From: Planctomycetota bacterium
Lineage (GTDB): Bacteria; Planctomycetota; PLA2; JAEUHO01
Direction: 5' to 3'
DNA length: 64,000 bases
NCBI GenBank assembly: GCA_965222115.1
Contig: CBDCTJ010000007.1
Span: 2,624,001-2,688,000 of the forward strand
The position numbers were made by a program, and so were the translations under genes. Within the stretch, counting starts at the first letter, position 1, and each line of letters opens with the position of its first letter. The notes under the pieces were generated by a model that was not told the origin of the DNA, did not search any database, and saw nothing but the letters and a program-made list of their open reading frames with translations. Positions 9,755 through 63,135 of this stretch are shown here, piece by piece.

Positions 9755-9933
9755 CGTTACCCGTTACCCGAATCCCGTCACCCGGACTCAAGTGTGATCG
9801 CTCAATGATCGATTCGCGCCGGTTCGTGGACGTGGACGTGGACGTGGACGTGGACGTGGACGTGGACGTGGACGTGGACGTGGACGTGGACGTGGACGTG
9901 GACGTGGACGTGGACGTGGACGTGGACGTGGAC
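9755..9933 (+). repeat. Repeat module: heptamer run + block X + (GTGGAC)18
   Basis: CCCGTTA CCCGAAT CCCGTCA, then CCCGGACTCAAGTGTGATCGCTCAATGATCGATTCGCGCCGGTTC, then 18 GTGGAC units (9826-9933). Confidence 0.95.
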
Positions 9934-9935
9934 GA

Positions 9936-10310
9936 TCAAGGCTCGTCGAACCTTCGTTGAAGCACGAACAACATAGCGGCGGATCGCTCTAGTATGTTCA
10001 TGACACCTGAGATTGCGGCCTCGCTGGAGAGTCCGAGTAGTAGAGCCTGATGTAGAGCGGCAATGGCCTCGGTGCGTTCGGCGTGTGCGATGTCGTACGC
10101 TTTGCGTTTCTCGGCTGGCCGTCGTTTCGAGAGTCCTTCGGCGACGTTTAGGGCAACGCTGACACTTGCGCGCCTGAGCTGATCTGCGAGCTTTGCGTGG
10201 CCCCGAGGCCATGCCGCGCAGGTTGCTACGCACTCGACTGCCGCGGCCTGCGAAGCACGGTAGACATCGAAGCGTTTGAGGTACTCGAGCGTGGAAGTCG
10301 CGCTTGTCAT
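9936..10310 (-). CDS. Four-helix bundle protein, subfamily A copy 1 (TIGR02436 / 23S rRNA IVS protein / Avd-like)
   Basis: 124 aa. Family signature FDVY...LADQLRRASVSVALNVAEG...YDIAHAE..E, with GGAG upstream of the ATG. Three close paralogs in the window. Confidence 0.88.
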   Translation of the reverse strand: MTSATSTLEYLKRFDVYRASQAAAVECVATCAAWPRGHAKLADQLRRASVSVALNVAEGLSKRRPAEKRKAYDIAHAERTEAIAALHQALLLGLSSEAAISGVMNILERSAAMLFVLQRRFDEP

Positions 10311-10467
10311 GATGGAACTCCGGCGTGAAAGGAGCGCAAGCCGTTTGCTCGCGTGTGCCCTTCGCAAAAGAGCCGAAGGCGAAGGAGGGCGCACGCGAGC
10401 GGACCGTACGAACAAGGTCCCGCGTGGACTCGGCAACCCGTTCCATGCTGGAGTTCCATCACAAGCG
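10301..10467. ncRNA. Conserved structured leader A (fold-back covering RBS and start codon), copy 1
   Basis: Outer arms 10301-10323 and 10448-10467. Inner 15-bp stem 10347-10361 / 10386-10400. Conserved in four copies. Whether it acts as RNA or ssDNA is not established. Confidence 0.6.
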
Positions 10468-10510
10468 GCGCCCGCGCGTACCGGTCGCGCATGAGTTACC
10501 GATGGCCTGC

Positions 10511-10740
10511 CCCGAATCCGTCACCCGTTACCCGAATCCCGTCACCCGGACTCAAGAGTGAGCGTCCGATAATCGATTCACGCAGGCTCGTGGACGTGGA
10601 CGTGGACGTGGACGTGGACGTGGACGTGGACGTGGACGTGGACGTGGACGTCAAGAGCAAATGGCCTTGCCATTTGCGCAAAGACCCTGAGTAAGCACCA
10701 GCGGATCTTTGATCCGCGCGGTGCGCATCGAAGGGTGGTC
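10511..10740 (+). repeat. Repeat module: heptamers + X + (GTGGAC)10 + hairpin block Y
   Basis: GTGGAC x10 at 10590-10649. Y = GAGCAAATGGCCTTGCCATTTGC..GACCCTGAGTAAGCACCAGCGGATCTTTGATCCGCGCGGTGCGCATCGAAGGGTGG. Confidence 0.95.
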
Positions 10741-10795
10741 GTCGTAGGCCAAGGGCGCGAATCGGTGCCAGGAGCGAACGTGTGGAAGGGGTGAG

Positions 10796-11218
10796 CTACT
10801 CGCGCCGTACGTACTTCTGCAGCTCTTCCACATGCTCCTGCTCTTCGCGCACCATGCCGCGTGCGTACTCTTCAAGGGCGACTTCGTTCTCGGGAATGAG
10901 TTTGAGGAGCGCAAGGTAGCCATCAACGGCGGCCTTCTCTGCTTCGAGGTTGGACTCAAGCATTTCCTGGACATTGAGGCTCTTTGTTTCCCAGGCCTTT
11001 TGGGCCTCAATATTGGGCTGACTGCCAAGCGAAACGATCTTCTCGCCAAGTTGAATGGCGTGCTGCAGGCTCTCTTGCGCATTCGCCCGCAGGTAGTTGA
11101 CGATGGGTTCACGGCCCCAACCGAAGACCATGAAGCTGTGGTGGAGGTAGCGATTGACGCCTTCCATTTCCATGGCGAGCAGACGATTGAGCTGATCGAT
11201 GAGCGCTTGATTTTGCAC
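10796..11218 (-). CDS. Bacterioferritin / ferritin-like protein
   Basis: LNRLLAMEMEGVNRYLHH, ESLQHA, LEAEKAA and EEQEH di-iron type motifs. GTG start with GGAGG RBS. Confidence 0.85.
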   Translation of the reverse strand: MQNQALIDQLNRLLAMEMEGVNRYLHHSFMVFGWGREPIVNYLRANAQESLQHAIQLGEKIVSLGSQPNIEAQKAWETKSLNVQEMLESNLEAEKAAVDGYLALLKLIPENEVALEEYARGMVREEQEHVEELQKYVRRE

Positions 11219-11847: not shown

Positions 11848-11898
11848 TGTCTGGCGCGCCACAAAAGCCTGGCTTTTGCGGCGCACACGATCTCGCCG

Positions 11899-24126: not shown

Positions 24127-24228
24127 GTGGCCGTGGACGTCGAGAGCAAATGGCTTTGCCATTTGCACGAGACCCTGAGTAAGCGCCAGCGGATCTTTGA
24201 TCCGCGCAGTGCGCATCGAAGGGTGGAC
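24127..24228 (+). repeat. Solo block Y with GTGGAC ends
   Basis: GTGGCCGTGGACGTCGAGAGCAAATGGCTTTGCCATTTGC...GCGGATCTTTGATCCGC...CATCGAAGGGTGGAC. Confidence 0.9.
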
Positions 24229-24308
24229 GTTTAGGAACCGCTGACACCGTCGATTGAAAGAACCGTCGCGAAGGGAATGCGAGATTGGCGGATGGCGCTC
24301 GTCCGGAA

Positions 24309-30537: not shown

Positions 30538-30765
30538 CCCCGATACCCGATACCCGAATCCCGTCACCCGTTTCCCGTATCCCGTCACCCGGACTCATAA
30601 GTGGACATCCGATGATCGTTCGCGCCGTTCGTGGACGTGGACGTGGACGTGGACGTGGACGTGGACATGGACGTGGACGTGGACGTGGACGCGGACGTGG
30701 AGAGCAAATGGCCTTGCCATTTGCGCGAAGACCCTGAGTAAGCACCAGCGGATCGAAGGGTGGAC
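30538..30765 (+). repeat. Solo repeat module (no cargo gene): heptamers + X + (GTGGAC)11 + internally deleted Y
   Basis: Eight heptamer units. Eleven hexamers at 30631-30696, including ATGGAC and GCGGAC variants. Y lacks TCTGATCCGCGCAGTGCGCATC. Confidence 0.92.
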
Positions 30766-31116
30766 CTCAAGTAGCGCAAAACGATTTCGTACCGGTCGCG
30801 AACTGTTGGATTTGGGTCCGCTCGACCGCAATCCGGCGCCCACGCAGTCTCCGACGCCTGCTCCCCCCCCACTTCGGCGTCTCCGCGTGAAACAAATCGC
30901 ACAATTCGTACCGGGAGCAAATTGTGAAATTAACAATTCGTGCCGGGAGCGAAATGTGCGAATGCACCGCCAAGCCCACGCACAGGATTTCTCCTGACAA
31001 CTTTCGCAGTGTGGCTTCGTCACCTTGGTGAGCCCCGACCTCGCTGGTGTCGAGCCGAGCTGGCCCTGGGTATCGAGTTTGCTGGCGAGGTCGTGGGCTT
31101 TGTTGGCGGGAGCGAG

Positions 31117-44495: not shown

Positions 44496-44542
44496 GGGAT
44501 TCGATCATGGGCTCATGCGCGGCGACGCCATTCGCTCGTTTC

Positions 44543-44716
44543 CCCGTCACCCGAAACCCGAACTCAAGTGTGAGCGTCCGGTGATCGATTCGCGCCAGTT
44601 CGTGGACGTCAAGAGCAAATGGCTTTGCCATTTGCGCGAAGACCGTGAGTAAGCACCAGCAGATCTCTGATCCGCGCAGTGCGCATCGATCGGTGGACGT
44701 GGACGTACAAGTGGAC
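44543..44716 (+). repeat. Repeat module: heptamers + X + (GTGGAC)1 + Y + trailing GTGGAC units
   Basis: CCCGAACTCAAGTGTGAGCGTCCGGTGATCGATTCGCGCCAGTTC GTGGAC GTCAAGAGCAAATGGCTTTGCCATTTGC...GTGGACGTGGACGTACAAGTGGAC. Confidence 0.92.
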
Positions 44717-44736
44717 AAAAGCGTGTATCGGAGAAG

Positions 44737-44782
44737 GACCCCAACGGGGTCACGTGTAATAGCCTGGGGTTTTAACCCCAGG
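44737..44782. repeat. REP/REPIN-like double hairpin
   Basis: GACCCC-AAC-GGGGTC and CCTGGGGTT-TT-AACCCCAGG. Confidence 0.55.
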
Positions 44783-44881
44783 TATAGTCGTCTCTTCTCT
44801 TTAGCGTTCTGTAGGGACGCCGCCCGACTGCATGCAAGTCCGAGTGAGCTCCTGCGATTTCTAATCTGCGCAGAACGCACC

Positions 44882-45036
44882 GAACTGCTTGCTGTATGAC
44901 TTGAAAGTGCACGGGGCAACACCCTTTGGGAAGTGCTACGTGCATGCCCCACTCGCCACGAGGGCGAGGGCACGCACTCGCATTCCCGCGGGTGTTTCCT
45001 CGTGGAGCTTCTCGTATGTCATACAGCAAACAGTTC
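44882..45036. ncRNA. Conserved structured leader B, copy 1
   Basis: GAACTGCTTGCTGTATGAC (44882-44900) pairs 18/19 with GTCATACAGCAAACAGTTC (45018-45036). Nested stems AACACCC/GGGTGTT, GTGCATGCCC/GGGCACGCAC and CTCGCC/GGCGAG. Confidence 0.6.
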
Positions 45037-45402
45037 TCGGTTACTTCCACGGCGGGTCGGCTTGAACGATTCGATGTGTATCGAATCGCACGTCGTGTCG
45101 CGGCCAGTATTCACCAGCTCTGTGGATCGCTGCCTCGAGGCAACGCCGAGCTTGCAAGCCAAGCTCGACGAGCCTCTACAGCCGTCGTCCTCAACATCGC
45201 GGAGGGTATCGGCCGCGCTGGCGCGGGCGCCAAACACCGCTCGTTCTCAATTGCTCGCGGTGAGTGCGTCGAGGCCGCCGCGGCACTCGACCTCATGCAG
45301 GCGATGGGCATTATCACAGGAGCCAGCGCCGCACCGACGCTTCATGATCTAGATCGCGTCCGCGCGATGCTGAATGCGCTGATCCGCCGCTGGCGGGAGT
45401 GA
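45016..45402 (+). CDS. Four-helix bundle protein, subfamily B copy 1
   Basis: 128 aa. FDVY...LASQARRASTAVVLNIAEG...FSIARGECVE, with GGAG 8 nt upstream. Confidence 0.88.
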   Translation: MSYSKQFSVTSTAGRLERFDVYRIARRVAASIHQLCGSLPRGNAELASQARRASTAVVLNIAEGIGRAGAGAKHRSFSIARGECVEAAAALDLMQAMGIITGASAAPTLHDLDRVRAMLNALIRRWRE

Positions 45403-45475
45403 GGCACGCCCATTCGCAGCGAACCTCGCAAAAAGTGCCGGGTGTAATTTTGCACCGGTTAGCGCACTCCCGCCA

Positions 45476-45844
45476 CCCGTCACCCGTTCCCCGAAACCCG
45501 TCACCCGGACTCAAGTGTGAGCGTCCGATAATCGATTCGTGTCGCGTTCAAAACGTGGACGTGGACGTGGACGTGGACGTGGACGTGGACGTGGACGTGG
45601 ACGTGGACGTGGACGTGGACGTGGACGTGGACGTGGACGTGGACGTGGACGTGGACGTGGACGTGGACGTGGACGTGGACGTGGACGTGGACGTGGACGT
45701 GGACGTGGACGTGGACGTGGACGTGGACGTGGACGTGGACGTGGACGTGGACGTCGAGAGCAGATGGGCGAAGCCCGTTTGCACGAGACCCTGAGCAAGC
45801 ACCAGAGGATCTGTGATCCGCGCGGTGCGCATCGAAGGGTGGAC
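45476..45844 (+). repeat. Repeat module: heptamers + X + (GTGGAC)33 + Y
   Basis: 33 units at 45555-45752. Y hairpin variant GCAGATGGGC-GAA-GCCCGTTTGC. Confidence 0.95.
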
Positions 45845-45858
45845 GCCCTCGATGCCTA

Positions 45859-47752: not shown

Positions 47753-47833
47753 CCCTTTTCCCGTTTCCCGTCACCCGGAATCCAGATTTGTGCCGGGTGC
47801 ATTTTCGCGCGCGGTGTGCATCGAAGGGTAGAC
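47753..47833 (+). repeat. Degenerate repeat module (heptamers + tail of Y)
   Basis: CCCTTTT CCCGTTT CCCGTCA CCCGGAA ... CGCGCGGTGTGCATCGAAGGGTAGAC. Confidence 0.75.
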
Positions 47834-47835: not shown

Positions 47836-48210
47836 TCATGGAACGTTGAATCGCCGCTGGAGGACGAACAACATCGCGGCGGTTCGCTCCAGCGTGTTCA
47901 TGACTCGCGAAACTTTGAGTTCACTCGAGAGACGGAGTAGGAGCGCGTGATGTAGAGCCGCGATGGCTTCGGTGCATTCGGCGTGTGCAATGTCGTAGGC
48001 CCTGCGCTTCTCGGCTGCCCGCCGTTTCGATAGGCCTTCGGCGACGTTTAGGGCAACGCTGGTGCTTGCGCGCCTGAGTTGATCGGCAAGTTTTGCGTTG
48101 CCTCGTGGCCACTCGGCGCAGATGGCGACGCACTCGACTGCCGCGGCCTGCGAAGCACGGTAGACGTCGAAGCGTTTGAGGTACTCGAGCGTTGAAGACG
48201 CGCTTGTCAT
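47836..48210 (-). CDS. Four-helix bundle protein, subfamily A copy 2
   Basis: 124-aa close paralog of 9936-10310. Confidence 0.88.
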   Translation of the reverse strand: MTSASSTLEYLKRFDVYRASQAAAVECVAICAEWPRGNAKLADQLRRASTSVALNVAEGLSKRRAAEKRRAYDIAHAECTEAIAALHHALLLRLSSELKVSRVMNTLERTAAMLFVLQRRFNVP

Positions 48211-48366
48211 GATGGAACTCCAGTTGAAGGGAACGCAAGCCGTTTGCTCGCGTGTGCCCTTCGCAAAAGAGCCGAAGGCGAAGGAGGGCACACGCGAGCG
48301 GGTCGTACAAACAGAGCCCGCGTGACAGCGACAACTCGTTCCCAAACTGGAGTTCCATCACAAGCG
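48201..48366. ncRNA. Conserved structured leader A, copy 2
   Basis: CGCTTGTCATGATGGAACTCCAGTT / AACTGGAGTTCCATCACAAGCG. Perfect inner stem GCTCGCGTGTGCCCT/AGGGCACACGCGAGC. Confidence 0.6.
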
Positions 48367-48417
48367 GCGCCTGCGCGTACCGAACGCGCTATGGCAACCG
48401 GCGGTGCTGTCCAAGGC

Positions 48418-48651
48418 CCAGTCACCCTTCACCCGTTACCCGTTACCCGTAAACCGAATCCCAGACTCAAGGGTGAGCGTCGGATGGACGATTCGCGCCG
48501 TCTTTACGTGGACGTGGACGTGGACGTGGACGTGGACGTGGACGTGGACGTGGACGTGGACGTGGACGTGGACGTGGACGTGGACGTGGACGTGGACGTG
48601 GACGTGGACGTGGACGTGGACGTGGACGTGGACGTGGACGTGGACGTGGAC
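48418..48651 (+). repeat. Repeat module: heptamers + X + (GTGGAC)24
   Basis: 24 units at 48508-48651, no Y block. Confidence 0.93.
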
Positions 48652-52594: not shown

Positions 52595-52764
52595 CCGTTA
52601 CCCGAAACCCGAAACCCGGGCTCAAGTGTGAGCGCTCAATGATCGATTCACGCCGGGTCGTCGAGAGTGAATGGCTTTGCCATTTGCACGAAGACCCTGA
52701 GTAAGCACCAGCGGATCTCTGATCCGCGCAGTGCGCATCAAAGGGTGCGCATCGAAGGGTGGAC
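52595..52764 (+). repeat. Repeat module: heptamers + X + Y with zero internal GTGGAC units
   Basis: ...GATCGATTCACGCCGGGTC is joined directly to GTCGAGAGTGAATGGCTTTGCCATTTGC. 14-nt duplication GTGCGCATC(A/G)AAGG. Ends in GTGGAC. Confidence 0.9.
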
Positions 52765-52810
52765 CTCAAGTAGCGTAATAGTCGTATGCGTTCGGTACCG
52801 ATGGACCACC

Positions 52811-52965
52811 GAACTGTTTGCTGTGTGACGTGAACGCGCACTGGGCAACACCCTTTGAGAAGTGCTACGTGCATGCCCCATTCGCCATGAGGGCGAGGGC
52901 ACGCACTCGCATTCCCGCGGGTGTTTCCTCGTGGAGTTTCTCGTATGTCACACAGCAAACAGTTC
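52811..52965. ncRNA. Conserved structured leader B, copy 2
   Basis: GAACTGTTTGCTGTGTGAC (52811-52829) is the exact reverse complement of GTCACACAGCAAACAGTTC (52947-52965). Confidence 0.62.
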
Positions 52966-53331
52966 TCGATTACTTCCACGGCAGGTCGGCTTGAACGTTT
53001 CGACGTGTATCGAATCGCACGCCGTGCCGCGGCCAGCATTCACCAGCTTTGTGGATCCCTGCCGCGAGGCAACGCCGAGCTTGCAAGCCAAGCTCGACGA
53101 GCCTCTACAGCCGTCGTCCTCAACATCGCCGAGGGCATCGGGCGCGCTGGCGCAGGCGCCAAGCACCGTTCGTTCTCCATCGCTCGCGGCGAGTGCGTCG
53201 AGGCCACCGCGGCACTCGACCTCATGCACGCGATGGGAATCCTTACAGGCGCCCACGCCGCGCCAACGCTTCGCGACCTTGACCGCGTTCGCGCAATGTT
53301 GAACGCGCTCATCCGGCGCTGGAGGGAATGA
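52945..53331 (+). CDS. Four-helix bundle protein, subfamily B copy 2
   Basis: 128-aa close paralog of 45016-45402. Confidence 0.88.
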   Translation: MSHSKQFSITSTAGRLERFDVYRIARRAAASIHQLCGSLPRGNAELASQARRASTAVVLNIAEGIGRAGAGAKHRSFSIARGECVEATAALDLMHAMGILTGAHAAPTLRDLDRVRAMLNALIRRWRE

Positions 53332-53339: not shown

Positions 53340-53572
53340 CCCGTTACCCGAGACCCGTTACCCGGACTCAAGTGTGAGCCTCTGATGATCGATTCGCGCC
53401 GTTCGTGGACGTGGACGTGGACGTGGACGTGGACGTGGACGTGGACGTGGACGTGGACGTGGACGTGGACGTGGACGTGGACGTGGACGTGGACGTGGAC
53501 GTGGACGTGGACGAAACCCTGAGTAAGCACCAACGGATCTCTGATCCGCGCGGTGCGCACCGAACGGTGGAC
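53340..53572 (+). repeat. Repeat module: heptamers + X + (GTGGAC)18 + Y lacking first hairpin
   Basis: 18 units at 53405-53512, then GAAACCCTGAGTAAGCACC...GGTGGAC. Confidence 0.93.
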
Positions 53573-53578
53573 ATGATG

Positions 53579-54283
53579 CTAGTTCAGTTCCGGTCGTGTC
53601 CCTGGAGGCACAGGAGGGTCACTTGCGTAGGCTTGTTTTTCTAGATACGAAACGAGCTGGGTGAAGCGTTTCAAGATGTCGGGCTCGGCCAATAACGCAT
53701 AGCGTTCATTAGGTTCAAGATCGCTAGCCGTGGCGACGGCATCCGCGTAGCGGCCCGGGCTCGCGTCCACGCCGCGGGTTTGATTGGCCATGCGGCGCAT
53801 TTCCCAAATGATGTTTTGACGGCCCGGGAGCATGTCGAGTGCGCGCTTCATAGCCTTTGCGATGTCGCCCGATTGATCGGGGCGCATGGTGTCACCAATG
53901 ACTTCGACGCGCGCGCGACGATACGGGTCGTGTGGAATCTCATCGACAATGCGGGCGCGGAAAAGTCCGTAGAGCAAAATGTCGCACTTACCGGTGGGCT
54001 GTTCGTGGTGGCGAAATATTTGCCCCACCGTAATGACGTCGTGAATCGGTGGGTTGCCGAGGTAGGAATCGTCAGCGTCGTCCCAGCCGGGCTTGAGCAG
54101 CGCGGTGGCGATGAGGCCGTCGTCTTCGAGGGCGTCGGTCACCATCTTCACGTAACGCCGTTCATAGACTTTGAGGGGCGCAAGGCCATCAGGAAAGAGC
54201 ACCAGATTAGGTAGGGGAAACAGGCGTACGTCCCCGGAGAAGTTCTCCAGCACCATCTTCAAATTCAGGGGCGGCTTCTGCAT
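53579..54283 (-). CDS. LON peptidase substrate-binding domain protein
   Basis: LFPLPNLVLFP...PLKVYERRY, with no ATPase or protease domain. Confidence 0.85.
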   Translation of the reverse strand: MQKPPLNLKMVLENFSGDVRLFPLPNLVLFPDGLAPLKVYERRYVKMVTDALEDDGLIATALLKPGWDDADDSYLGNPPIHDVITVGQIFRHHEQPTGKCDILLYGLFRARIVDEIPHDPYRRARVEVIGDTMRPDQSGDIAKAMKRALDMLPGRQNIIWEMRRMANQTRGVDASPGRYADAVATASDLEPNERYALLAEPDILKRFTQLVSYLEKQAYASDPPVPPGTRPELN

Positions 54284-54322
54284 CGCCGTACTATACCCGC
54301 TGGTTCACCCCGGAGTCGGTCC

Positions 54323-55147
54323 ATGCAACATGACGCGCTCGAGTCGCTGCTGCGCGATGTTCGCGAGGGCTCGGTCGATGTGGCCACCGCCATGGGGCGC
54401 ATTTCGGGCGTTACAAACGCTGCACCAGCCTTTCAAGCAGAAGCAGTGATTGCGCGCTTGGACGCGAATCGTGCCGATCGCTGTGGATTCCCGGAAGTGA
54501 TCTATGGTGAATCCAAAGAGCCGAGCGACTTGGCTCGACTTGTACGGGCGGCCCTGGACGCGTCCGGTTCGTTGCTGGTTACGCGTGCGGATAGGCGACG
54601 ATTTGAGGCGGTCTTGAACGCCGTACCGGTCGCGATGTATCACGAACGCGCTCGCTGCATCACCGTCATGCCTGAGGCTCCGACGGAATCTCGAACGGGC
54701 GTATTGATCGCCTGTGCCGGTACAAGTGATGTGCCGGTGGCTGAAGAGGCGCGGGTCACGGCCTCAATGATGGGGGAGGCACCCGAAACGCGCTACGACG
54801 TGGGCGTGGCAGGACTTCAACGAATCCTGGCAGAGCTCGACACGCTACGAATGTCGCGCGTCATTGTGGTCGTAGCGGGTATGGACGGGGCGCTTCCGAG
54901 TGTGGTCGCGGGACTGACCGCGGCGCCCGTTATCGCAGTACCCACGAGTGTTGGGTACGGCGCGGCATGGCAGGGCGTGGCGCCCCTGCTCACCATGCTA
55001 AATGCCTGCGCTCCCGGCGTGTCCGTGGTCAATATCGACAATGGCTTCGGTGCAGGCTACCTGGCCGCAACCATCAACGCCATGGCTTCCGCGCATCCAG
55101 AACATGCGAGCCACCAATCTCTGAAGCGTGCGGTGCCCTCCGAGTAG
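54323..55147 (+). CDS. larB: Nickel-pincer cofactor biosynthesis protein LarB
   Basis: GFPEVIYGESK, AGTSDVPVAEEA, DVGVAG, AGMDGALPSVV, PTSVGYG, VVNIDNGFGA. Confidence 0.93.
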   Translation: MQHDALESLLRDVREGSVDVATAMGRISGVTNAAPAFQAEAVIARLDANRADRCGFPEVIYGESKEPSDLARLVRAALDASGSLLVTRADRRRFEAVLNAVPVAMYHERARCITVMPEAPTESRTGVLIACAGTSDVPVAEEARVTASMMGEAPETRYDVGVAGLQRILAELDTLRMSRVIVVVAGMDGALPSVVAGLTAAPVIAVPTSVGYGAAWQGVAPLLTMLNACAPGVSVVNIDNGFGAGYLAATINAMASAHPEHASHQSLKRAVPSE

Positions 55148-55157
55148 CCTCTCGGGC

Positions 55158-56339
55158 ATGAATGCACCCTCACCGGCCACCCTCGTTCTTGCCGACGGGT
55201 CGGTCTTTCACGGACGACACTTCGGCGCCGACAAAGCGCGCGCGGGCGAAGTCGTGTTCAACACGGCCATGACCGGATACCAAGAGATCGCGACCGATCC
55301 GTCGTACGCGGGGCAAATTGTCTGCATGACGTACCCCCACATCGGCAATACCGGCGTGAATGACGAAGACCTCGAAGCGGCCCACCCGTGGATCGAGGCC
55401 TTCGTCGTGCGCGAACATTCGCCGATTGCCAGCAACTTTCGTTCGAACAACACCTTGGATGGATGGCTCAAGGCACACGACATCATTGGCATAGAAGGTG
55501 TTGATACGCGGCGCCTCACGCGTCATGTACGAACTATGGGAGCCATTGGCGGTGTCGTCGGCGGACCGGGAAGCAAGACCGACGCACTTTTGGAACAAGC
55601 GAAAGCGTTGCCTTCAATGGCCGGCATGGATCTTGTGACCACGGTGACATGCAAAGAGCCGTATTCCTTTGGTGAAGCGTGGCCCGAGCCATGGTTCCCT
55701 TCGCCAGAACACATCGGACAAGGACGCGACGGTGTTGGGCCTTCGAAGGCCGATTCGCTCTCGCCCAAGTCGGTCGTTGTCATGGACTTTGGTGTGAAAC
55801 GCAACATTCTTCGTTCACTTCGTACCTTTGGCTTAGAGCCTTACGTGGTTCCTGCCTCGACCTCAGCCGCCGACATTTTGGCGCGTAATCCCGACGGCGT
55901 GTTTTTTAGCAATGGTCCGGGAGATCCCGCCGCCGTTACCTATGCCATTGACACCATCAAGGAACTGCTGGGCAAGGTTCCCACATTCGGGATTTGCCTC
56001 GGGCACCAACTGATGGCGTTGGCGGCGGGGGCAAAGACCCGCAAGCTCAAGTTCGGTCACCGCGGCGCCAACCATCCCATTCGCGAACACGCCACGGGTC
56101 GCATAGAAATCACGAGCCAAAATCACGGCTTTGTGGTGGAAGAAGAGAGCCTGGGCGGCACCCCATTCAAGCCTACGCACACCAACCTCAACGACAACAC
56201 CAATGCCGGCATGGCCAGCGAGGCCCTACGCGCATTCGCCGTCCAGTACCACCCCGAGGCCGCCCCCGGTCCACGCGACGCCGGGCATCTGTTTTATCGC
56301 TTTCGCCAGCTGATTGAAGGTAGTGCAACGTTGGTGTGA
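55158..56339 (+). CDS. carA: Carbamoyl-phosphate synthase small subunit
   Basis: GEVVFNTAMTGYQE, SNGPGDP, GICLGHQ, ITSQNHGF, VQYHPEAAPGP. Confidence 0.97.
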   Translation: MNAPSPATLVLADGSVFHGRHFGADKARAGEVVFNTAMTGYQEIATDPSYAGQIVCMTYPHIGNTGVNDEDLEAAHPWIEAFVVREHSPIASNFRSNNTLDGWLKAHDIIGIEGVDTRRLTRHVRTMGAIGGVVGGPGSKTDALLEQAKALPSMAGMDLVTTVTCKEPYSFGEAWPEPWFPSPEHIGQGRDGVGPSKADSLSPKSVVVMDFGVKRNILRSLRTFGLEPYVVPASTSAADILARNPDGVFFSNGPGDPAAVTYAIDTIKELLGKVPTFGICLGHQLMALAAGAKTRKLKFGHRGANHPIREHATGRIEITSQNHGFVVEEESLGGTPFKPTHTNLNDNTNAGMASEALRAFAVQYHPEAAPGPRDAGHLFYRFRQLIEGSATLV

Positions 56340-56363
56340 CCCCAGTGAGCTTCCTCGCGGTTG

Positions 56364-56465
56364 CCCGTTACCCGTGATGCGCGGCCCGACACCCGTTACC
56401 CGATACCCGGACTCAAACGTGAGCGTACGATGGTCGATCTGTGCAGCGCGCATCGAACGGTGGAC
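56364..56465 (+). repeat. Degenerate repeat module (heptamers + X fused to tail of Y)
   Basis: CCCGTTACCCGATACCCGGACTCAAACGTGAGCGTACGATGGTCGAT...GCGCATCGAACGGTGGAC. Confidence 0.85.
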
Positions 56466-56467
56466 GG

Positions 56468-56842
56468 TCAGGGACCGCCGAATTTGTGTTGAAGCACGAA
56501 CAACATGGCGGCGGCGCGTTCTAGGGTGTTCATCGCCTGCGACGTTGCGCGCTCGCTTGCGATTCCAAGCAGCTGGGCGTGATGCAGCGCAGCGATCGCT
56601 TCGGTGCACTCGGCGTGGGCGATGTCGTATGCCTTGCGCTTCTCGGCGGGGCGGCGCTTCGCCAGCCCCTCTGCGACGTTGAGTGCAACGCTGGTACTAG
56701 CGCGCCGGAGTTGATCGGCGAGTTTTGCGTGGCCTCGAGGCCATGTTGCGCAGAGCGCGACGCACTCGACTGCTGCTGCCTGCGAAGCACGGTAGACATC
56801 GAAGCGTTTGAGGTAATGGAGCGTGGAAGACGCGCTTGTCAT
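56468..56842 (-). CDS. Four-helix bundle protein, subfamily A copy 3
   Basis: 124-aa close paralog of 9936-10310. Confidence 0.88.
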   Translation of the reverse strand: MTSASSTLHYLKRFDVYRASQAAAVECVALCATWPRGHAKLADQLRRASTSVALNVAEGLAKRRPAEKRKAYDIAHAECTEAIAALHHAQLLGIASERATSQAMNTLERAAAMLFVLQHKFGGP

Positions 56843-57000
56843 GATGGAACTCCAGCGTGAAGGGAACGCAAGCCGTTTGCTCGCGTGTGCCCTTCACAAA
56901 AGAGCCGAAGGCGAAGGAGGGCACACGCGAGCGGGTCGTACAAAAAGTCCCCTCGTGACAGCGACAACTCGTTCTCAAGCTGGAGTTCCATCACAAGCGC
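56832..57000. ncRNA. Conserved structured leader A, copy 3
   Basis: GCGCTTGTCATGATGGAACTCCAGC / GCTGGAGTTCCATCACAAGCGC. Confidence 0.6.
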
Positions 57001-57041
57001 AGCCCGCGCGTAACGGTCGCGCATGCCTTGCCCGCGGCCCG

Positions 57042-57345
57042 CCCGGAATCCGTCACCCGTATCCCGTCATCCGGACTCAAATGTGGACATCCGATGATCG
57101 ATTCACGCCGGTTCGTGGACGTGGACGTGGAGAGCAGATGGGCGAAGCCCATTTGCGCGAAGACCCTGAGTAAGCACCAGCGGATCTCTGATCCGCGCAG
57201 TGCGCATCGAAGGGTGGACGCAAATTGGTGCCGGGCGCGAACGTGCGTGCCCCGCGACCCGTTCCCCCGTACCCCGAGCCCCGATTCCCGTCACCCATCA
57301 CTCGTTACCCGACACCCGGTCGCCAGTGTGAGCGTTCAATGAACG
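57042..57345 (+). repeat. Repeat module: heptamers + X + (GTGGAC)2 + Y, followed by a second degenerate heptamer + X block
   Basis: GTGGAC x2 at 57115-57126. Y ends at 57219. Second heptamer run from 57251. Confidence 0.9.
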
Positions 57346-57454
57346 ACTTGCAGTGCAAATTGCCACCGGGAGCGAACTCCGCGAATTGCGCTCATTTTGA
57401 GTCGTTCCCCGTCATCTGCCCGGGTAGAATCCGCTTTTACACGGAGAATGCGCC

Positions 57455-58777
57455 ATGAGCGTAACCTGTGTCTTTGGTATGCACTGGGGCGACGAGGGTA
57501 AGGGGCGCATTGTAGACCTGCTCGCCGCGCAGTCCGATGTGGTTGTCCGTTTTCAGGGTGGCGCAAACGCGGGCCACACCGTCATTGTGGACGACCAAAA
57601 ATATGTGCTTCACCTCCTGCCCTCGGGCGTGATTCAACCCAGCACGATCAATGTGATCGGAAACGGCGTCGTGGTGGATCCCGAAGTCGTGCTGGCCGAA
57701 ATCGACGAGCTTGTGGGCCGTGGGATCAAGCTCGATGGGCGTCTATTCATCTCGGACCGCGCCCACGTTGTGCTGCCGCATCACAAGTTGCTTGACCGTG
57801 CGTTTGAGGCGTTGCGTGGCGATGGCGCGCTGGGCACGACCTTTCGCGGCATCGGACCTGCATATTCGGACAAAGCGAGCCGAGACGGCGTGCGGATCGT
57901 TGACTTGCTTGAGACCAAACGTTTTGCTCCGGCGCTCACCATGGCGAAGCGCTACGGCGATCCGATTCTTGAGAAGGTGGGCATGGACCCCATCGACGTG
58001 GACGCGTCGGCAAAACAACTGTCCGCGTGGGGGAAACGATTGCGCCCCTTTGTTCGCGACACGGTTTCGTTTCTTCTTGATCAGCAAGAGAAGGGCGTGC
58101 GCATCTTGCTCGAAGGTGCGCAAGGGTACGCACTCGACATCGATCACGGCACTTATCCGTTTGTTACGTCAAGTAGTACGTGCCCGGCGGGTGCGGCTGC
58201 AGGCACGGGGTTGCCGCCGCGCGCGATCGACGAAATGGTTGGTGTTGTTAAGGCCTATAGCACGCGCGTGGGCGCTGGACCATTTCCCACGGCAGCGGAA
58301 CCGTCGGTCGCGGAACATCTTGGCAAGCACGGCGCCGAATTTGGCGCTACGACCGGGCGACCACGGGGCTGCGGCTGGTTCGATGGCGTGATCGCGAAGC
58401 GTGCCATTGAAACGCAGGGCGTCGATTCTGTTTGCCTCATGAAGATGGACGTGCTCTCGGGACTCACCGAAATCAAGGTGTGCACGGCCTACACATACCA
58501 AGGAGAAACGCTTACTGCGCCGCCGGCTTGGATTGGTGACTGGGACGACCTGAAACCGGTCTATACCACCTATGACGGTTGGAACGAGGACATTTCTGGC
58601 GTTCGGCACTTCATCGACTTGCCGGTCGCGGCGCAACATTACGTACATGCGATTGAATCGTTCCTCAACACGCCCATATCCATTGTGAGCGTGGGGCCGG
58701 AACGCGATCAGTTTATTGACATGACGCGTCCGCATCAATCTGTAAAAAACGTGGGTTCCAAAGTACAGGCCGGATAG
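57455..58777 (+). CDS. purA: Adenylosuccinate synthase
   Basis: WGDEGKG, GGANAGHT, EGAQG..LDIDHGTYPFVTSS, EFGATTGRPRGCGWFD. Confidence 0.97.
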   Translation: MSVTCVFGMHWGDEGKGRIVDLLAAQSDVVVRFQGGANAGHTVIVDDQKYVLHLLPSGVIQPSTINVIGNGVVVDPEVVLAEIDELVGRGIKLDGRLFISDRAHVVLPHHKLLDRAFEALRGDGALGTTFRGIGPAYSDKASRDGVRIVDLLETKRFAPALTMAKRYGDPILEKVGMDPIDVDASAKQLSAWGKRLRPFVRDTVSFLLDQQEKGVRILLEGAQGYALDIDHGTYPFVTSSSTCPAGAAAGTGLPPRAIDEMVGVVKAYSTRVGAGPFPTAAEPSVAEHLGKHGAEFGATTGRPRGCGWFDGVIAKRAIETQGVDSVCLMKMDVLSGLTEIKVCTAYTYQGETLTAPPAWIGDWDDLKPVYTTYDGWNEDISGVRHFIDLPVAAQHYVHAIESFLNTPISIVSVGPERDQFIDMTRPHQSVKNVGSKVQAG

Positions 58778-58806
58778 CGGCCTGGCACGAAAGAGGCACG
58801 TCGCGC

Positions 58807-59715
58807 ATGACCAGCGATTCCACGTCTACGTCAAAGAGCAGTCGCGATGTGCGCGTGCGACTCGTCGTAGCACCCATCGTCTTGGCCGTCGTATTGGGCA
58901 CGATCTGGCTCGCTGAACACTTCGAGTCGCGCCTTCCACTTCATCTCTTGATCATGTTTTTTGCCATTGGTTCAGGCATTGAGTTTGTGCGCATGCTTGC
59001 GCCGTCAGGGACAAGCGAGCGCCTCAAGGGCGGAGCGTTGGCGTGGATCACGTGCGGACTGCTTGCGGGGGTGGGTTTGATCGAGCTTCTGCGGCCCACG
59101 TCAAGTTACGTCGCCGATGCGGGTCTGCGCATGGAACTGCGCGTACTCATCGTCATCGCATTCACCTGGTGCATCTTGGTGGGCAAGTACTTCTTGGATA
59201 CACGTCACAAATCCACGTCCGAAATTGGCCGCGTCTTTCTGCCCGTGCTCTACATCGGCCTACCGCTCTCGCTAGCATGTGAAATTTGTGCTGGCCCTCT
59301 TGCGGCGCGTCGGGTCATGTGGGTGGTCTTGGTCGCCAAAGCGTGTGACATCGGTGGCTGGGTATTTGGCAAGCTGTTTGGCAAGCACAAAATGGTGCCC
59401 ACCGTGTCGCCAGGAAAGTCGTGGGAAGGCACCACGGGGGGCATTGTCCTGAGCATCGCCGCGGCGGTATTCCTTCCCGACCTATTCGGATTGCCTGAGT
59501 CCGAGTGGTCCGTAGCGATGCGCGTGGGATTCGGATTCATGGTGGGGGCGGCCACCATCTTGGTGGGCGTCACGCAAAGCGGATGGAAACGCCGTGCAGG
59601 CGTCAAGGACTCAAGCGCCCTGATTCCGGAGATGGGCGGCATCCTCGACATGACCGATTCGCTGCTCTTTGCGGTTCCGGTGGCGTATCTGTGGTATCGA
59701 TTTGTGGTGGCGTAG
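58807..59715 (+). CDS. cdsA: Phosphatidate cytidylyltransferase
   Basis: VSPGKSWEG, KRRAGVKDSSALIPEMGGILDMTDS. Confidence 0.92.
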   Translation: MTSDSTSTSKSSRDVRVRLVVAPIVLAVVLGTIWLAEHFESRLPLHLLIMFFAIGSGIEFVRMLAPSGTSERLKGGALAWITCGLLAGVGLIELLRPTSSYVADAGLRMELRVLIVIAFTWCILVGKYFLDTRHKSTSEIGRVFLPVLYIGLPLSLACEICAGPLAARRVMWVVLVAKACDIGGWVFGKLFGKHKMVPTVSPGKSWEGTTGGIVLSIAAAVFLPDLFGLPESEWSVAMRVGFGFMVGAATILVGVTQSGWKRRAGVKDSSALIPEMGGILDMTDSLLFAVPVAYLWYRFVVA

Positions 59716-59778
59716 TTGAACGCGTTAGAGTGGCCGGCCCTTTCGAAGACATATCATCAAAAGCACCACGAGTTCCAC

Positions 59779-60846
59779 ATGCCCCAAGTCCGCATCGCCA
59801 ACACCGGAGAAGCCGCGCAGCGCGTGTTGTTTGGTCCTATGGACAAACATCTGCGCCGGATTCGTGAGCATTTCGGCGTGCGCATAAGCGCTCGCAACGA
59901 AGTACTCACGCTTGAGGGCGACGATGTGGACGCGGTTGAAGATGTCGCGCGACGATTGAAGCGCGTGTTGGGTCGCATGAATGGGCGCACCGAGCCACCT
60001 GAGAACGAAGTCGAAGAGATTTTGCTTGGATCCGGAAAGCCATCGTCGAGTCGCAAGATTCGAACCTCAAACGGACCACGCACGGGCACAGGCCAAGCGC
60101 CTCACCGCATGTCGAAGACCACGGCGCGTGATCACGGCGGTTCGATTGCACCCAAACCAAAGACGCCGGGCCAAGAACGCTACATCGATGCCATCCGAGA
60201 GCACGACGTCGTGTTTGCCTTGGGGCCGGCGGGCACGGGCAAAACGTTTTTGGCAGTCGTAGAAGCCGTGCGTTGCCTACGAGACGGCACGGCCCGCAAG
60301 ATTATCCTCACGCGTCCCGCGGTGGAGGCAGGTGAGAAGCTAGGATTTTTGCCGGGTGATTTTCAAGCGAAGATCAATCCCTATTTACGACCGCTCTATG
60401 ATGCGCTGGGCGAGTTGCTAACGCACGCCGAAGTACAACGCTACTTCGAGGCCGACGTGATTGAAATTGTGCCGTTGGCCTATATGCGCGGTCGCACCTT
60501 GAAAGAGGCATTCATCATTCTTGACGAGGCGCAGAATACGACTCCCGCGCAGATGAAGATGTTTCTCACACGTATGGGCGAACGATCCAAAGTCGTCGTA
60601 AATGGCGACGCATCCCAGGTGGACTTGCCCGGTGGAACTACATCATCGGGGCTGAGTCAAAGCGTTCGCATTCTTGAGGATGTTCCCGGAATCGCCGTGG
60701 TTCGCTTCGCACCAACCGACATATTGCGTCATCCGTTGGTTCAACGCATTGTGGATGCCTATGACCGCGAAGACGATCGACGAGCAGCGAATGAGTCATC
60801 AAGCGACGCAGACGATGTGAGCGACGACGAATCGCAAGGCGCATGA
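59779..60846 (+). CDS. phoH: PhoH family ATPase
   Basis: [39 protein letters not shown]. Confidence 0.95.
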
Positions 60847-61310
60847 GTGGCGGTTCCCCAACGGCTTCCGTATCGATTGTCGATTGCGTAGAGATTCCCG
60901 GAGGTAAGTCGGTTTTCGAGCGACGCATGCAAGCTGTGGCACACATGGCGGCTGCCTATGCCGGGTGTTCGTTGGAGCTCGTCTATGTGGTGCTTGGGGA
61001 CGACGAGATGCGCGCGCAGAACAAAGCTGCGCTCAACCATGACTATCCAACCGATGTGCTCTCCTTTGACATGGGTCACACACACGACATACGTCACGGC
61101 GAGATCCTTGTGTCGGCCGACACCGCCGTTCGTGAAGCAGCATCTCGCGCACACAGTGGGGCAGATGAGTTGTGCCTGTATGCAGTTCACGGCACACTCC
61201 ACTTCGTGGGGTACGACGATCACGATCCCGCCGATCGAAGACGAATGCGTGCTGCCGAGAGGCGATGGCTACGCCGATTGGGTTGCAATGCAATCTACGG
61301 ACGTCGGTAA
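60843..61310 (+). CDS. ybeY: rRNA maturation RNase YbeY
   Basis: [19 protein letters not shown]. Confidence 0.93.
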
Positions 61311-61395
61311 TCGCCCCCGCCCTACTCACGCCCCCCGCGAATGATTGCCCTTTACGCCTCTCTCTCCGAGGATAGGGCGTCCTTCGGAGATCGTC

Positions 61396-62589
61396 ATGTC
61401 GAGTCAGCAGCACCTTGTCGAACGCGTCTTAGAAATGGGCGTGGCCACCCGTGAGCAGGTGGATGAGGCCCTTGAAATTTGCAGTCGGCTCAGTGAAATG
61501 GGCATGAAGTCGCGCTCCGTGATCGACGTTCTTTTCGAAAAGGAATACATCGACAAGGAAGTTTTCGATCGGCTCCAGCGCGAAGCCAAGCGTGTGGAGG
61601 GCAAAGAGCAAATTGCCGGCTATCGCCTCCTCGATCGTCTCGGTGAGGGCGCGATGGGTGCCGTCTATCGTGCAAAGCAGCTTTCGCTGGATAGAGAAGT
61701 GGCTGTCAAGGTTCTCGACCCCGAACTGGCGAGCAATGACGAGTACGTCAAGCGTTTCATGAGCGAGGCGCGCGCCGTGGCCCGACTCAATCACACAAAC
61801 ATTATCAGCGGCATCGATGTGGGCGACGCAGACGGCATCAAATATCTCGTTATGGAGTATGCCGACGGAATGACGGTGAGTTCCCTGCTTGAACGCGGCG
61901 GTGCGCTCGATGAAGAGCGCGCGTTGTGGGTTGTGCTCCAAATGGCTCGTGCCTTAGATCACGCGCATCGCAACAACTTGGTTCACCGCGACGTCAAACC
62001 CGACAACATCATCATCACGAAAGATGGCGTCGCGAAGCTGTGTGACTTGGGTCTTGCCCGATTGGAAAGCGCGGAGGGTGAGGCGCCCCAACGTATGGGC
62101 ACCCCCGCCTACATTTCGCCCGAGCAGGCTCGCGGCGATGTAACCGTGGACGAACGTACCGATCTCTATAGCTTGGGCGCCACGTGGTTTCACATGGTAA
62201 CCGGTCGCCCGCCCTACACCGGCAACGACGCAGGTGCTGTACTCGCCAAACACCTCACGGAACCCGTGCCCCACGTGCGAACAATCGATCCCACGATTAG
62301 CGAGATGAGCGATGAACTGGTCTTTGGTCTGCTCCAAAAGCGCCGCGGCGACCGAACCGAGTCCGCCAGCGTTTTGATTCCGCAGTTGGAATCCGCCATT
62401 CGCGAATTGCAGTTGGCTCGTGGTGCCAGCCCCTCCAGTGCGATGGGCGTAGCAGCGAAAGCAAAACCAGCCGCCGGTTCCATCAAGGTTCCTGTGCGTC
62501 CCGCAGCCCCGGAACCGCGCTCCGCGGATGTTCCCAGTCGTCCAAGTGCTCCGATCGCTCCAAGACCAAGGCGTCGGCGAAGGCGTTAG
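61396..62589 (+). CDS. Serine/threonine protein kinase
   Basis: LGEGAMGAVY, VAVK, HRDVKPDN, CDLG, GTPAYISPEQ. Confidence 0.95.
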   Translation: MSSQQHLVERVLEMGVATREQVDEALEICSRLSEMGMKSRSVIDVLFEKEYIDKEVFDRLQREAKRVEGKEQIAGYRLLDRLGEGAMGAVYRAKQLSLDREVAVKVLDPELASNDEYVKRFMSEARAVARLNHTNIISGIDVGDADGIKYLVMEYADGMTVSSLLERGGALDEERALWVVLQMARALDHAHRNNLVHRDVKPDNIIITKDGVAKLCDLGLARLESAEGEAPQRMGTPAYISPEQARGDVTVDERTDLYSLGATWFHMVTGRPPYTGNDAGAVLAKHLTEPVPHVRTIDPTISEMSDELVFGLLQKRRGDRTESASVLIPQLESAIRELQLARGASPSSAMGVAAKAKPAAGSIKVPVRPAAPEPRSADVPSRPSAPIAPRPRRRRRR

Positions 62590-62653
62590 GGTTCGCCTCC
62601 TAGCGGACAGTTTTCTGCACGTGGTTCCCGACTCTGTTTTCAGCGCCCGTATG

Positions 62654-62758
62654 CCGTTACCCGTTACCCGAGACCCGATACCCGATACCCGATACCCGAT
62701 ACCCGGTCTCAAGTGTGAGCATCCGATGATCGATTCGAGGCACGTTTAAGACGTGGAC
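62654..62758 (+). repeat. Repeat module: heptamers + X + (GTGGAC)1
   Basis: CCCGTTA CCCGAGA (CCCGATA)4 CCCGGTCTCAAGTGTGAGCATCCGATGATCGATTCG...GTGGAC. Confidence 0.9.
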
Positions 62759-62760
62759 GA

Positions 62761-63135
62761 TCACGGTTCGTCGAATCGGCGCTGAAGTACGAACAACATG
62801 GCGGCGGATCGCTCCAAGCTGTTCATGACGAGTGAGATTGCGGCTTCGCTGGCGAGACCAAGCAATAGCGCGTGGTGTAGAGCGGCAATGGCCTCGGTGC
62901 ATTCGGCGTGTGCGATGTCGTAGGCCCTGCGCTTTTCGGCTGGCCGCCGTTTCGATAGGCCTTCAGCGACGTTTAGCGCAACGCTGGTACTTGCGCGCCT
63001 GAGTTGATCGGCGAGCTTTGCGTGGCCGCGAGGCCATGCGGCGCAGATTGCGACGCACTCGATCGCCGCGGCTTGCGAAGTACGGTAGACATCGAAGCGT
63101 TTGAGGTACTCGAGCGTAGAAGAGGCGCTTGTCAT
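62761..63135 (-). CDS. Four-helix bundle protein, subfamily A copy 4
   Basis: 124-aa close paralog of 9936-10310. Confidence 0.88.
   Translation of the reverse strand: MTSASSTLEYLKRFDVYRTSQAAAIECVAICAAWPRGHAKLADQLRRASTSVALNVAEGLSKRRPAEKRRAYDIAHAECTEAIAALHHALLLGLASEAAISLVMNSLERSAAMLFVLQRRFDEP

Follow-up and report, generated by a model that had tools for sequence, protein, structure and literature searches.

Tandem arrays of the hexamer GTGGAC at the borders of four-helix-bundle gene cassettes in a Planctomycetota genome

The window analyzed here is a 64-kb stretch of a genome assigned to a Planctomycetota bacterium (GCA_965222115.1, contig CBDCTJ010000007.1, hereafter C7, positions 2,624,001 to 2,688,000), and window positions are counted from its first letter. 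Between its protein genes lie composite repeats in which tandem arrays of the hexamer GTGGAC adjoin small cassettes, and the genes in these cassettes specify Avd-like four-helix-bundle proteins, members of the "23S rRNA intervening-sequence protein" family. The arrays end repeated blocks, are prone to forming hairpins, vary in length between loci, and are enriched for breakpoints.

Repeat Unit, Blocks, and Composites

The recurring unit, U, is intergenic and consists of a run of heptamers, (CCCGNNN)3-8, a 50-nt core X that occurs as two subtypes, a short linker, and (GTGGAC)1-33. The heptamers form no hairpins; read on the minus strand, they are of the type GGGNNNC, with G3N4 spacing. To the right of U lies an A cassette, a B cassette, the block Y, or unique DNA, and another U follows A or B. 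The A cassette comprises a reversed gene, with 2 nt between its stop codon and the array, a leader of 180 nt, and a spacer of 60 nt, and the B cassette a head (GTCAAGTAGCG), a 140-nt leader that begins directly after the array, and a forward gene. Y is a structured block of 93 nt with two hairpins and the end GGGTGGAC, which includes GTGGAC. Its fold is conserved: five one-sided changes in four pairs of hairpin 1 keep G.U pairing on the + strand, and the outer stem shows one compensatory pair.

Genome-wide mapping of these modules yielded 59 clusters of module matches, and the 27 with X, or with both hexamers and heptamers, were taken further. Recurring composites are U-A-U-Y, U-A-U-B-U(-Y), U-Y-B-U-Y, and U-B-U, with U-A-U-Y and U-A-U-B-U each seen four times across the genome. 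Cargo-free U-Y also exists (for example, window 30539-30766). Searches of the window against Rfam at the gathering score placed no family over U, Y, or the leaders, lax thresholds returned one sub-threshold Acido-Lenti-1 match (44737-44782, minus strand), and a scan for consensus promoters and terminators gave nothing beyond shuffled sequence.

Two smaller repeats overlap this vocabulary. One piece of Y, its positions 32-88, is found by itself at about 25 places on contigs C1, C3, C5, and C7, in both orientations, and several of these copies form inverted pairs 240-530 nt apart. The piece looks like an independent repeat of the repetitive extragenic palindrome (REP) kind. Z is a small hairpin with the loop GTGCCGGG that is also dispersed alone elsewhere in the genome. 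Its loop GTGCCGGGYG is conserved, and its stems vary yet remain complementary (window 57220-57250 and 45418-45450); 26 genome copies carry a 6-bp flanking inverted repeat. Some copies adjoin U, and others follow a B stop or Y.

The Hexamer and Its Arrays

The window contains 198 copies of GTGGAC, nearly all on the + strand, against an expectation of 42.4 (sd 7.3; none of 100 shuffles reached 198). Most fall within nine tandem arrays of 2-33 copies, eight of which are 100% perfect. Across the genome, arrays likewise span 2-33 copies and are perfect save a few, so that repeat number differs between loci from 1 to 33 once single-hexamer loci are counted; the longest, with 33 copies, lies in the window (45555-45752). 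Among the 68 arrays of period 4-9 in the genome, 29 are within 1 kb of a PF05635 gene, and the unit of the listed 100%-perfect period-6 arrays is always a rotation of GTGGAC or its complement.

GTGGAC combines an ACGT palindrome with GG and is only quasi-self-complementary, and single strands of an array therefore fold into slipped hairpins. The predicted folding energy of a 108-nt array is -23.3 kcal/mol for the + strand and -18.7 kcal/mol for the - strand (z about -7; 0 of 200 shuffles equally stable), in both cases through ACGT stems with G.G or C.C mismatches. Array ends carry partial units of differing length (G, GT, GTG, GTGGA).

Some individual arrays deserve mention in their own right. 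Beside an X core at C7:2841795-2841829 the unit drifts within the array, a variant (GTGGGC)4 being followed by GTGGAC. The 3' end of a tRNA-Leu(taa) lies 6 nt from the end of one hexamer array (C7:2316281-2316479), and a second array is about 40 nt from a tRNA-like 3' end, possibly that of a tmRNA, on which ARAGORN made no call (C7:2846400-2846580).

Cassette Genes and Their Protein

The genome (4.55 Mb, seven contigs) holds 18 PF05635 matches above the cut-off. Ten are subfamily A genes, antiparallel to the hexamer strand, and eight belong to subfamily B, run parallel to it, and include two copies in the window; the A and B paralogues are 42% identical. The four A copies of the window score 54.6-64.7 bits with PF05635 (cut-off 33.8), and TIGR02436, "four helix bundle protein", gives 63.5 bits for A and 72.6 for B (cut-off 24). 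The A gene starts at an ATG preceded by GGAG, encodes 124 aa, and ends in a minus-strand TGA that appears as TCA on the hexamer strand.

A structure model built with seven sequences has four helices and a mean predicted local distance difference test score (pLDDT) of 90.6. Foldseek matched this predicted model to 2GSC (XCC0516) and 2RLD (BT_0352) with template-modeling (TM) scores of 0.78-0.90 and a root-mean-square deviation of 1.2-2.3. The next matches were chains of Avd from diversity-generating retroelements (DGRs), 8UB7_E and 4DWL_D, with TM scores of 0.72-0.84 and 7-9% identity. A resemblance of PF05635 to Avd is also noted in the accessible text of PMC10053308. For both cassettes, the leader is predicted to form a long hairpin closing at the ribosome-binding site or the first codons (z -5.55 for A and -7.95 for B).

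Junctions and Breakpoints at GTGGAC

A previous sequence-only reading of the window had described GTGGAC as a fixed junction at which blocks are swapped. The four junctions on which it drew are present exactly (GTGGAC-GA-TCA at 9928, GTAGAC-GC-TCA at 47828, GTGGAC-GG-TCA at 56460, and GTGGAC-GA-TCA at 62753), and the spacing of exactly 2 nt between hexamer and A stop position extends to all ten A copies of the genome. At these ten sites the hexamer is GTGGAC nine times and GTAGAC once, the codon is TCA nine times and CCA once (stop lost), and the arrays to the left count 1, 6, 7, 18, 1, 1, 1, 9, 5, and 2 copies. The accompanying statement that the blocks left of the hexamer differ held in part: a Y-tail-like stretch does occur at 47828 and 56460, but heptamers lie to the left of all ten A copies and X to the left of nine. 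The copy at 56460 has X followed by 19 nt resembling the tail of Y, and in the copy at 47828 X is replaced by a divergent stretch (32-44% identity) that ends in a Y tail. The leaders of the eight B copies follow an X-linked array (five), a Y tail (two), or X without hexamer (one). For A and B cassettes alike, the preceding sequence is an X-linked array in some copies and a Y tail with its GTGGAC in others.

As a description, the statement that blocks start just past one GTGGAC and finish in another is accurate: because A, B, and Y are arranged around the arrays, every block begins after and ends in GTGGAC. Arrays of at least two copies number 41, about 35 of them in elements; in neighbor classes that were partly assigned by eye, correcting automatic ones, the left neighbor is X in about 33 and a Y tail in two, and the right neighbor is an A stop in six (plus four with a single hexamer), a B head in five, Y in 11, and unique DNA, Z, or other sequence in about 11. 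The right end of the composite, counted by eye, is GTGGAC in about 21 of the 27 loci, often followed by a partial unit.

Breakpoints were assessed by collapsing the arrays to one copy and aligning the 27 loci all against all, which gave 546 clustered alignment endpoints. Within 3 nt of GTGGAC lie 14.1% of these endpoints, which are noisy as local-alignment ends and not independent of one another, compared with 3.8% expected; this 3.7-fold enrichment ranks first among 31 hexamers of similar count, followed by rotations of GTGGAC and words derived from the heptamers. Heptamer runs are enriched about 3-fold (20.1% vs 6.7% expected). The remaining 66% of endpoints fall at neither kind of repeat, which argues against GTGGAC as the sole junction. 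Across the ten A loci, pairwise identities in neighboring segments (left X, gene halves, leader, spacer, right X) show almost no correlation with one another (r between -0.31 and 0.38); two A copies, for example, are 99% alike in the 3' half of the gene and 85% in the leader. This lack of correlation between neighboring segments indicates exchange among copies throughout the cassette. With mosaicism extending across entire cassettes, the hexamer is favored as a junction but is not exclusive. Part of the GTGGAC regularity is due to common descent of one cassette. The earlier proposal that the hexamer is a crossover or insertion core is therefore partly supported: the data speak for a preferred junction, while no enzyme for insertion or excision, no target duplication, and no novel junction at the read level was found. 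The tandem runs may be residues of repeated insertion, as that reading suggested, or simply products of slippage.

Genomic Placement and Features of the Window

Along C7, cumulative GC skew is lowest at 0.58 Mb and peaks at 2.76 Mb. Elements occupy 2.27-2.94 Mb of this contig, to either side of the peak, and two more are on contig C3; all 18 PF05635 genes are at 2.27-2.85 Mb, and 25 of the 27 arrays of at least three copies at 2.27-2.94 Mb. The elements thus cluster around the replication terminus. By local skew, the GTGGAC strand is the leading strand at 25 of 27 loci (p = 5.6e-6), which makes the elements co-oriented with replication. Of the seven U loci of the window, five have convergent and two have tandem flanking genes, and none has divergent ones; three of the flanking open reading frames (ORFs) are without Pfam support.

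Features of the window are collected in Table 1. Two neighboring features stand apart from the elements. The window opens with an open 2257-aa ORF (2-6775) that contains internal repeats of about 336 nt (families D10 and D13-D15). A 459-aa ORF (43116-44495) has a 138-nt tandem repeat (44131-44513, 2.4 copies, 77% match) at its 3' end, and a U element follows directly. Elsewhere in the assembly, contig C6 (48 kb) has a GC content of 39.7% compared with 55-59% for the other contigs and may be a foreign replicon or a binning contaminant.

Table 1. Elements, cassettes, and associated sequences in the 64-kb window
Feature	Position	Strand
U left of A copy 1: CCCGNNN x4 and 50-nt X	9760..9825	+
(GTGGAC)18, perfect; last copy at 9928, 2 nt from A stop	9826..9933	+
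A gene copy 1, 124 aa, PF05635/TIGR02436	9936..10310	-
A leader copy 1 (long hairpin closing on Shine-Dalgarno/AUG) and spacer	10311..10493	-
U: heptamers, X, (GTGGAC)10	10524..10649	+
Y, two hairpins, here ending GGGTGGTC	10650..10741	+
Solo Y, GTGGAC end	24137..24229	+
Cargo-free element: heptamers x8, X, (GTGGAC)6+3, Y with internal deletion	30539..30766	+
Heptamers, X, single GTGGAC, Y with two GTGGAC at end	44543..44704	+
Unrelated insert of ~170 nt, Y to B leader; weak Acido-Lenti-1 match	44705..44877	
B leader copy 1, long hairpin, 3' arm = codons 2-9	44878..45015	+
B gene copy 1, 128 aa, PF05635/TIGR02436, 42% identity to A	45016..45402	+
U: heptamers and X	45469..45554	+
(GTGGAC)33, perfect, longest of the genome	45555..45752	+
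Y, GTGGAC end; 14 nt from stop of convergent DUF6498 gene	45753..45845	+
Heptamers, divergent stretch, Y-tail-like end, GTAGAC at 47828	47760..47833	+
A gene copy 2	47836..48210	-
A leader copy 2	48211..48390	-
U: heptamers, X subtype 2, (GTGGAC)24; 22 nt to stop of next ORF	48432..48651	+
Heptamers, X, no hexamer, Y with GTGGAC end at 52759	52601..52764	+
B leader and B gene copy 2 (ATG 52945)	52807..53331	+
U: heptamers, X, (GTGGAC)18, then 5'-truncated Y, GTGGAC end	53340..53573	+
Heptamers, X, 19-nt Y-tail-like stretch, one GTGGAC at 56460	56385..56465	+
A gene copy 3; model is a four-helix bundle	56468..56842	-
A leader copy 3, z -5.55	56843..57033	-
X, (GTGGAC)2, full Y with GTGGAC end	57065..57219	+
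Z-like stretch, heptamers, degenerate X without hexamers	57220..57372	+
Heptamers x7, X, linker, one GTGGAC at 62753	62660..62758	+
A gene copy 4	62761..63135	-
A leader copy 4	63136..63315	-
U: heptamers x8, X subtype 2, (GTGGAC)26	63343..63595	+
Further heptamers and X-like core without hexamers	63604..63696	+

Arrays beside PF05635 Genes in Other Genomes

Short tandem array bracketing is a general property of this gene family. A first set comprised 53 loci that encode distant relatives (33-53% identity, with a few short segments higher), mostly from metagenome-assembled genomes (MAGs) of Polyangium and other Myxococcota, each genome contributing several loci. Upstream DNA was long enough in 44 loci, and in 31 of these an array of period 5-20 terminates no more than 500 nt before the inferred start, typically at -165 to -175. 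Array coverage is 32% between positions -400 and -200 compared with at most 1.3% beyond -800. The units vary (GCGGGA, GGAAGC, GGGCAC, CCCGCG, a 19-mer, and others), and repeated cassettes start in the array; one MAG contains a 1.45-kb unit with arrays on both sides.

PF05635 is present in 85 of 151 sampled genomes of the phylum of the window, with up to 52 matches in a single genome. A second set, the best locus from each of 30 genomes of this phylum (GC 39-73%), shows heptamer or octamer arrays abutting the gene upstream in 20 of 29 loci, downstream in 23 of 29, and on both sides in 16. In 14 of these 16 two-array loci the units on the two sides of the gene are reverse complements of each other. 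Two example loci fold, by minimum-energy and centroid prediction alike, so that the arrays form a terminal stem enclosing the ORF. Coverage is about 20% beside the gene vs at most 3.6% in the flanks. A genome of the same order as that of the window has PF05635 genes beside CCCGAC/CCCGAT and ACGTGA/CGTTCA arrays, the latter equivalent to GTGAAC, one base off GTGGAC with the ACGT core kept. Arrays are not universal: the low-GC genome with 52 matches had none at the five loci examined. In that genome (9.3 Mb, loci at about 33-36% GC) many near-identical copies share an in-frame TGA or TAG and may represent pseudogene families or recoding.

Search for Enzymes and Relatives

Profile matches across the genome revealed no dedicated enzyme in or beside any element. 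A Y1 transposase of 153 aa (C7:1411691) is flanked by an unrelated repeat, and its surroundings gave no significant match to the X, Y, Z, A, or B modules. This gene, similar to REP-associated tyrosine transposases (RAYTs), has its own repeat on both sides, ending in a GTATGTCCCTTCGGGACC hairpin (C7:1411450-1412600). Membership in REP or bacterial interspersed mosaic elements (BIMEs) mobilized by a RAYT is accordingly rejected, as the flanks of the Y1 gene are unlike the element repeats. None of the seven tyrosine recombinase matches in the genome adjoins a cassette array; two are beside tRNA genes, at 2.41 and 2.445 Mb. The elements are not integron gene cassettes either, no integrase being found next to a cassette array.

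Reverse transcriptases (RTs) also number seven in the genome, with none inside a cassette and one 1 kb from locus 1; six of the seven look like two repeated sets with near-identical scores. At 7041-8986 of the window, Rfam identifies a group II intron (domains 1-4, 113 bits; 3' domain, 42.5 bits), which holds a 442-aa RT ORF (7563-8891) just downstream of the 2257-aa ORF. Assignment to the DGRs was rejected, as the nearest RT is the one in this intron region rather than one adjacent to the cassette genes; the repeat list of the window, in a survey not aimed at such pairs, showed no template and variable repeat beside the genes. Residence in a 23S rRNA gene, at the intervening-sequence (IVS) sites of helix 9, 25, or 45, was likewise rejected: the window has no rRNA match, and the elements are flanked by protein genes such as carA, purA, and that for a class IV aminotransferase. 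As regards complementary termini, the arrays flanking the cassettes in this genome are in direct orientation and comprise two kinds, and the hexamer itself is only quasi-self-complementary.

Within the set of genomes searched, the specific element seems to be restricted to this one. Of 30 relatives queried with the DNA of locus 3, three gave weak matches, none of them a member of the genus; (GTGGAC)5 was absent from the remaining 39 genomes of the order, and the X core had no matches in metagenome contigs.

Origin and Role of the Arrays

On balance, we lean toward an account in which the slippage-prone arrays are at once the ends of the cassettes and substrates for recombination or template switching, a mechanism that we infer from the arrangement of the copies. 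Slipped hairpins in the arrays would drive expansion and contraction of the hexamer, with slippage changing copy number. Unequal recombination, gene conversion, or template switching during replication would then occur preferentially in arrays and heptamer runs, and such events could concatenate and exchange blocks to give orders such as U-A-U-Y, U-A-U-B-U-Y, and U-Y-B-U-Y. The terminus region and co-orientation with replication may favor or tolerate these events.

Several points weigh against this account. No recombination event was observed in public contigs of three DNA runs from one study; over 53600-63400, at a depth of about 3-5, no novel GTGGAC-joined order could be called, and the contig joints listed there arise because paralogous copies map onto each other. 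No close relative that would offer empty sites for comparison with filled ones was found among the genomes searched. Some junctions consist of a single hexamer, too short for RecA-type homology. Gene conversion may occur anywhere, as mosaicism extends beyond the arrays; the endpoint enrichment could stem partly from low-complexity effects on local alignment; and common descent would by itself account for the regularity at ten of ten A stops. The first arrival of elements at 27 separate intergenic sites is not explained by recombination between arrays already in place. Finally, three array-bracketed PF05635 genes in another family of the phylum are syntenic across species or genera, and this conservation in place shows that not every such gene is mobile.

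The first alternative, which we consider unlikely, is site-specific insertion of single-stranded DNA: nonautonomous blocks ending in GTGGAC would insert directly 3' of a GTGGAC in the manner of insertion sequences of the IS200/IS605 type, with the enzyme supplied in trans, and arrays would be residues of repeated events later amplified by slippage. In its favor, blocks are joined head to tail in one orientation, without terminal inverted repeats or target duplications, and follow GTGGAC; junctions hold with one hexamer; left ends vary and right ends are constant; and Y carries hairpins near its end, with G.U-type changes on the + strand only. Co-orientation at 25 of 27 loci is what insertion into the lagging-strand template predicts, although selection can also produce an orientation bias. 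The enzymology is where this alternative loses ground: no candidate or cognate transposase lies in or beside the elements, the lone Y1 transposase has unrelated flanks, and the tyrosine recombinases are not next to cassette arrays. Array ends, moreover, are varying partial units rather than the product of one fixed cut.

Common descent combined with slippage, which we regard as quite unlikely to suffice, would have whole composites duplicated and the arrays as neutral microsatellites with no role in exchange. Homology does run through the array, with heptamers left of ten of ten A copies and X left of nine; the same composite grammars recur, and mosaicism is found throughout the cassettes. Against this stand the diversity of right neighbors of the arrays (A, B, Y, unique DNA) beside a constant left neighbor, the occurrence of A and of B each after both an array and a Y tail, and the 3.7-fold enrichment of endpoints at GTGGAC. 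Array bracketing also recurs in unrelated genomes with other units, which neutral slippage does not predict.

A retroelement origin appears highly improbable. Under such a scheme RNA would be copied by an RT acting in trans with the Avd-like protein as cofactor, slippage during priming would produce the 3' hexamer run, and 5' truncation the variable left ends. The right end is indeed a constant (GTGGAC)n, and left ends are variable or truncated, as in X without heptamers at C7:2362000 and C7:2751076. The fold matches that of DGR Avd, described as an RT cofactor in the accessible part of PMC10053308, and one of the seven RT matches in the genome is 1 kb from locus 1. Yet no RT lies in a cassette, six of the seven look like repeated sets, the one in the window belongs to a group II intron region, and arrays occur inside composites as well. 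The specificity of group II intron RTs for their own RNA is a further point against this scheme. Mis-assembly of repeats can be set aside as a source of the long arrays and block orders, for although assembly is difficult across perfect arrays as long as 198 bp and a related draft genome has many PF05635 matches at contig ends, the contexts of the 27 arrays are consistent, their unique flanks on a contig of 3.07 Mb are distinct, and independent contigs of the three runs agree over flanks and cassette parts at 99-100% identity, array copy numbers being outside their coverage.

Comparison with Known Systems

To our knowledge, the role of the "23S rRNA IVS protein" has stayed unexplained since 1993, save for its relative Avd in DGRs. 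The cassettes resemble the 23S rRNA IVSs of Leptospira and Coxiella in carrying a small ORF of the PF05635 family in a compact, selfish-looking unit. They differ in lying between protein genes, in ending in tandem units of 6-7 nt, in having flanking arrays that are direct and of different kinds, and in a separate leader hairpin of 150-180 nt that closes on the start codon. The Coxiella IVS has terminal inverted repeats that form a 28-bp stem cut by RNase III, according to the available text of PMC4990558, and the inverted arrays of the other genomes likewise enclose the ORF in a terminal stem. With DGR Avd, the predicted model shares the four-helix-bundle fold (TM 0.72-0.84), whereas identity is 7-9% and no RT is adjacent here.

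Intergenic heptamer repeats have been reported as GGGAATC in Xanthomonas, where they were studied as quadruplex-forming, and as GGGGA(C/T)T in Nostoc (PMC4692102), and TAACTGA heptamers occur in Beggiatoaceae, Cyanobacteria, and Bacteroidetes (PMC4679880); the accessible portions of both papers report no mechanism, and a term search of them returned no mention of a four-helix-bundle or S23 gene family. The minus-strand heptamers described here share with GGGAATC the G3N4 spacing, the intergenic location, and the variable length. In the present genome they are coupled to a core, a hexamer array, and PF05635 cassettes. In literature outside subscription journals and supplements, we found no report coupling the PF05635 family to flanking short tandem arrays or block borders.

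Taken across genomes, it is possible, and we propose it tentatively, that arrays of 6-8 nt are the functional ends of widespread, undescribed IVS-like cassettes with Avd-like genes, and that in the present genome a quasi-palindromic unit (ACGT plus GG) enables direct arrays to serve as ends of cassettes in either orientation and is also a fork-dependent insertion or exchange core near the terminus. If so, some of the intergenic heptamers known from Xanthomonas, cyanobacteria, and other groups would mark the ends or footprints of such cassettes, and the four-helix-bundle protein would act on these repeats. The link between gene family and array gives a testable handle on both the role of the protein and the intergenic heptamer arrays, as one can ask whether the protein binds the arrays, whether RNase III cleaves a stem formed by them, and whether they mediate cassette exchange. 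For this genome, it accounts for the perfect microsatellites and predicts rearrangement hot spots around the terminus.

The BIME/REP elements of enterobacteria and the intergenic mosaic elements of Neisseria (NIME/dRS3) are composed of modular blocks in varying order, located intergenically at the 3' side of genes, with a short conserved border motif. The present elements share the concatenated intergenic blocks and the short border motif; here, in contrast, the border is a perfect hexamer array of up to 33 copies, and the blocks carry protein genes. A further parallel is hmw1A of Haemophilus influenzae, for which the available text of PMC12721329 describes a hairpin that, together with RNase III, sets expression and is needed for change in repeat number. 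As in that rheostat, a tandem array of 6-7-nt units lies upstream of a gene and is followed by a long hairpin in the 5' untranslated region (5'-UTR); the arrays reported here, known from sequence alone, are also found downstream of genes and at block borders. The kinds of system that these elements resemble are thus already known, namely, IVS cassettes, intergenic mosaic repeats, and simple sequence repeats with 5'-UTR hairpins.

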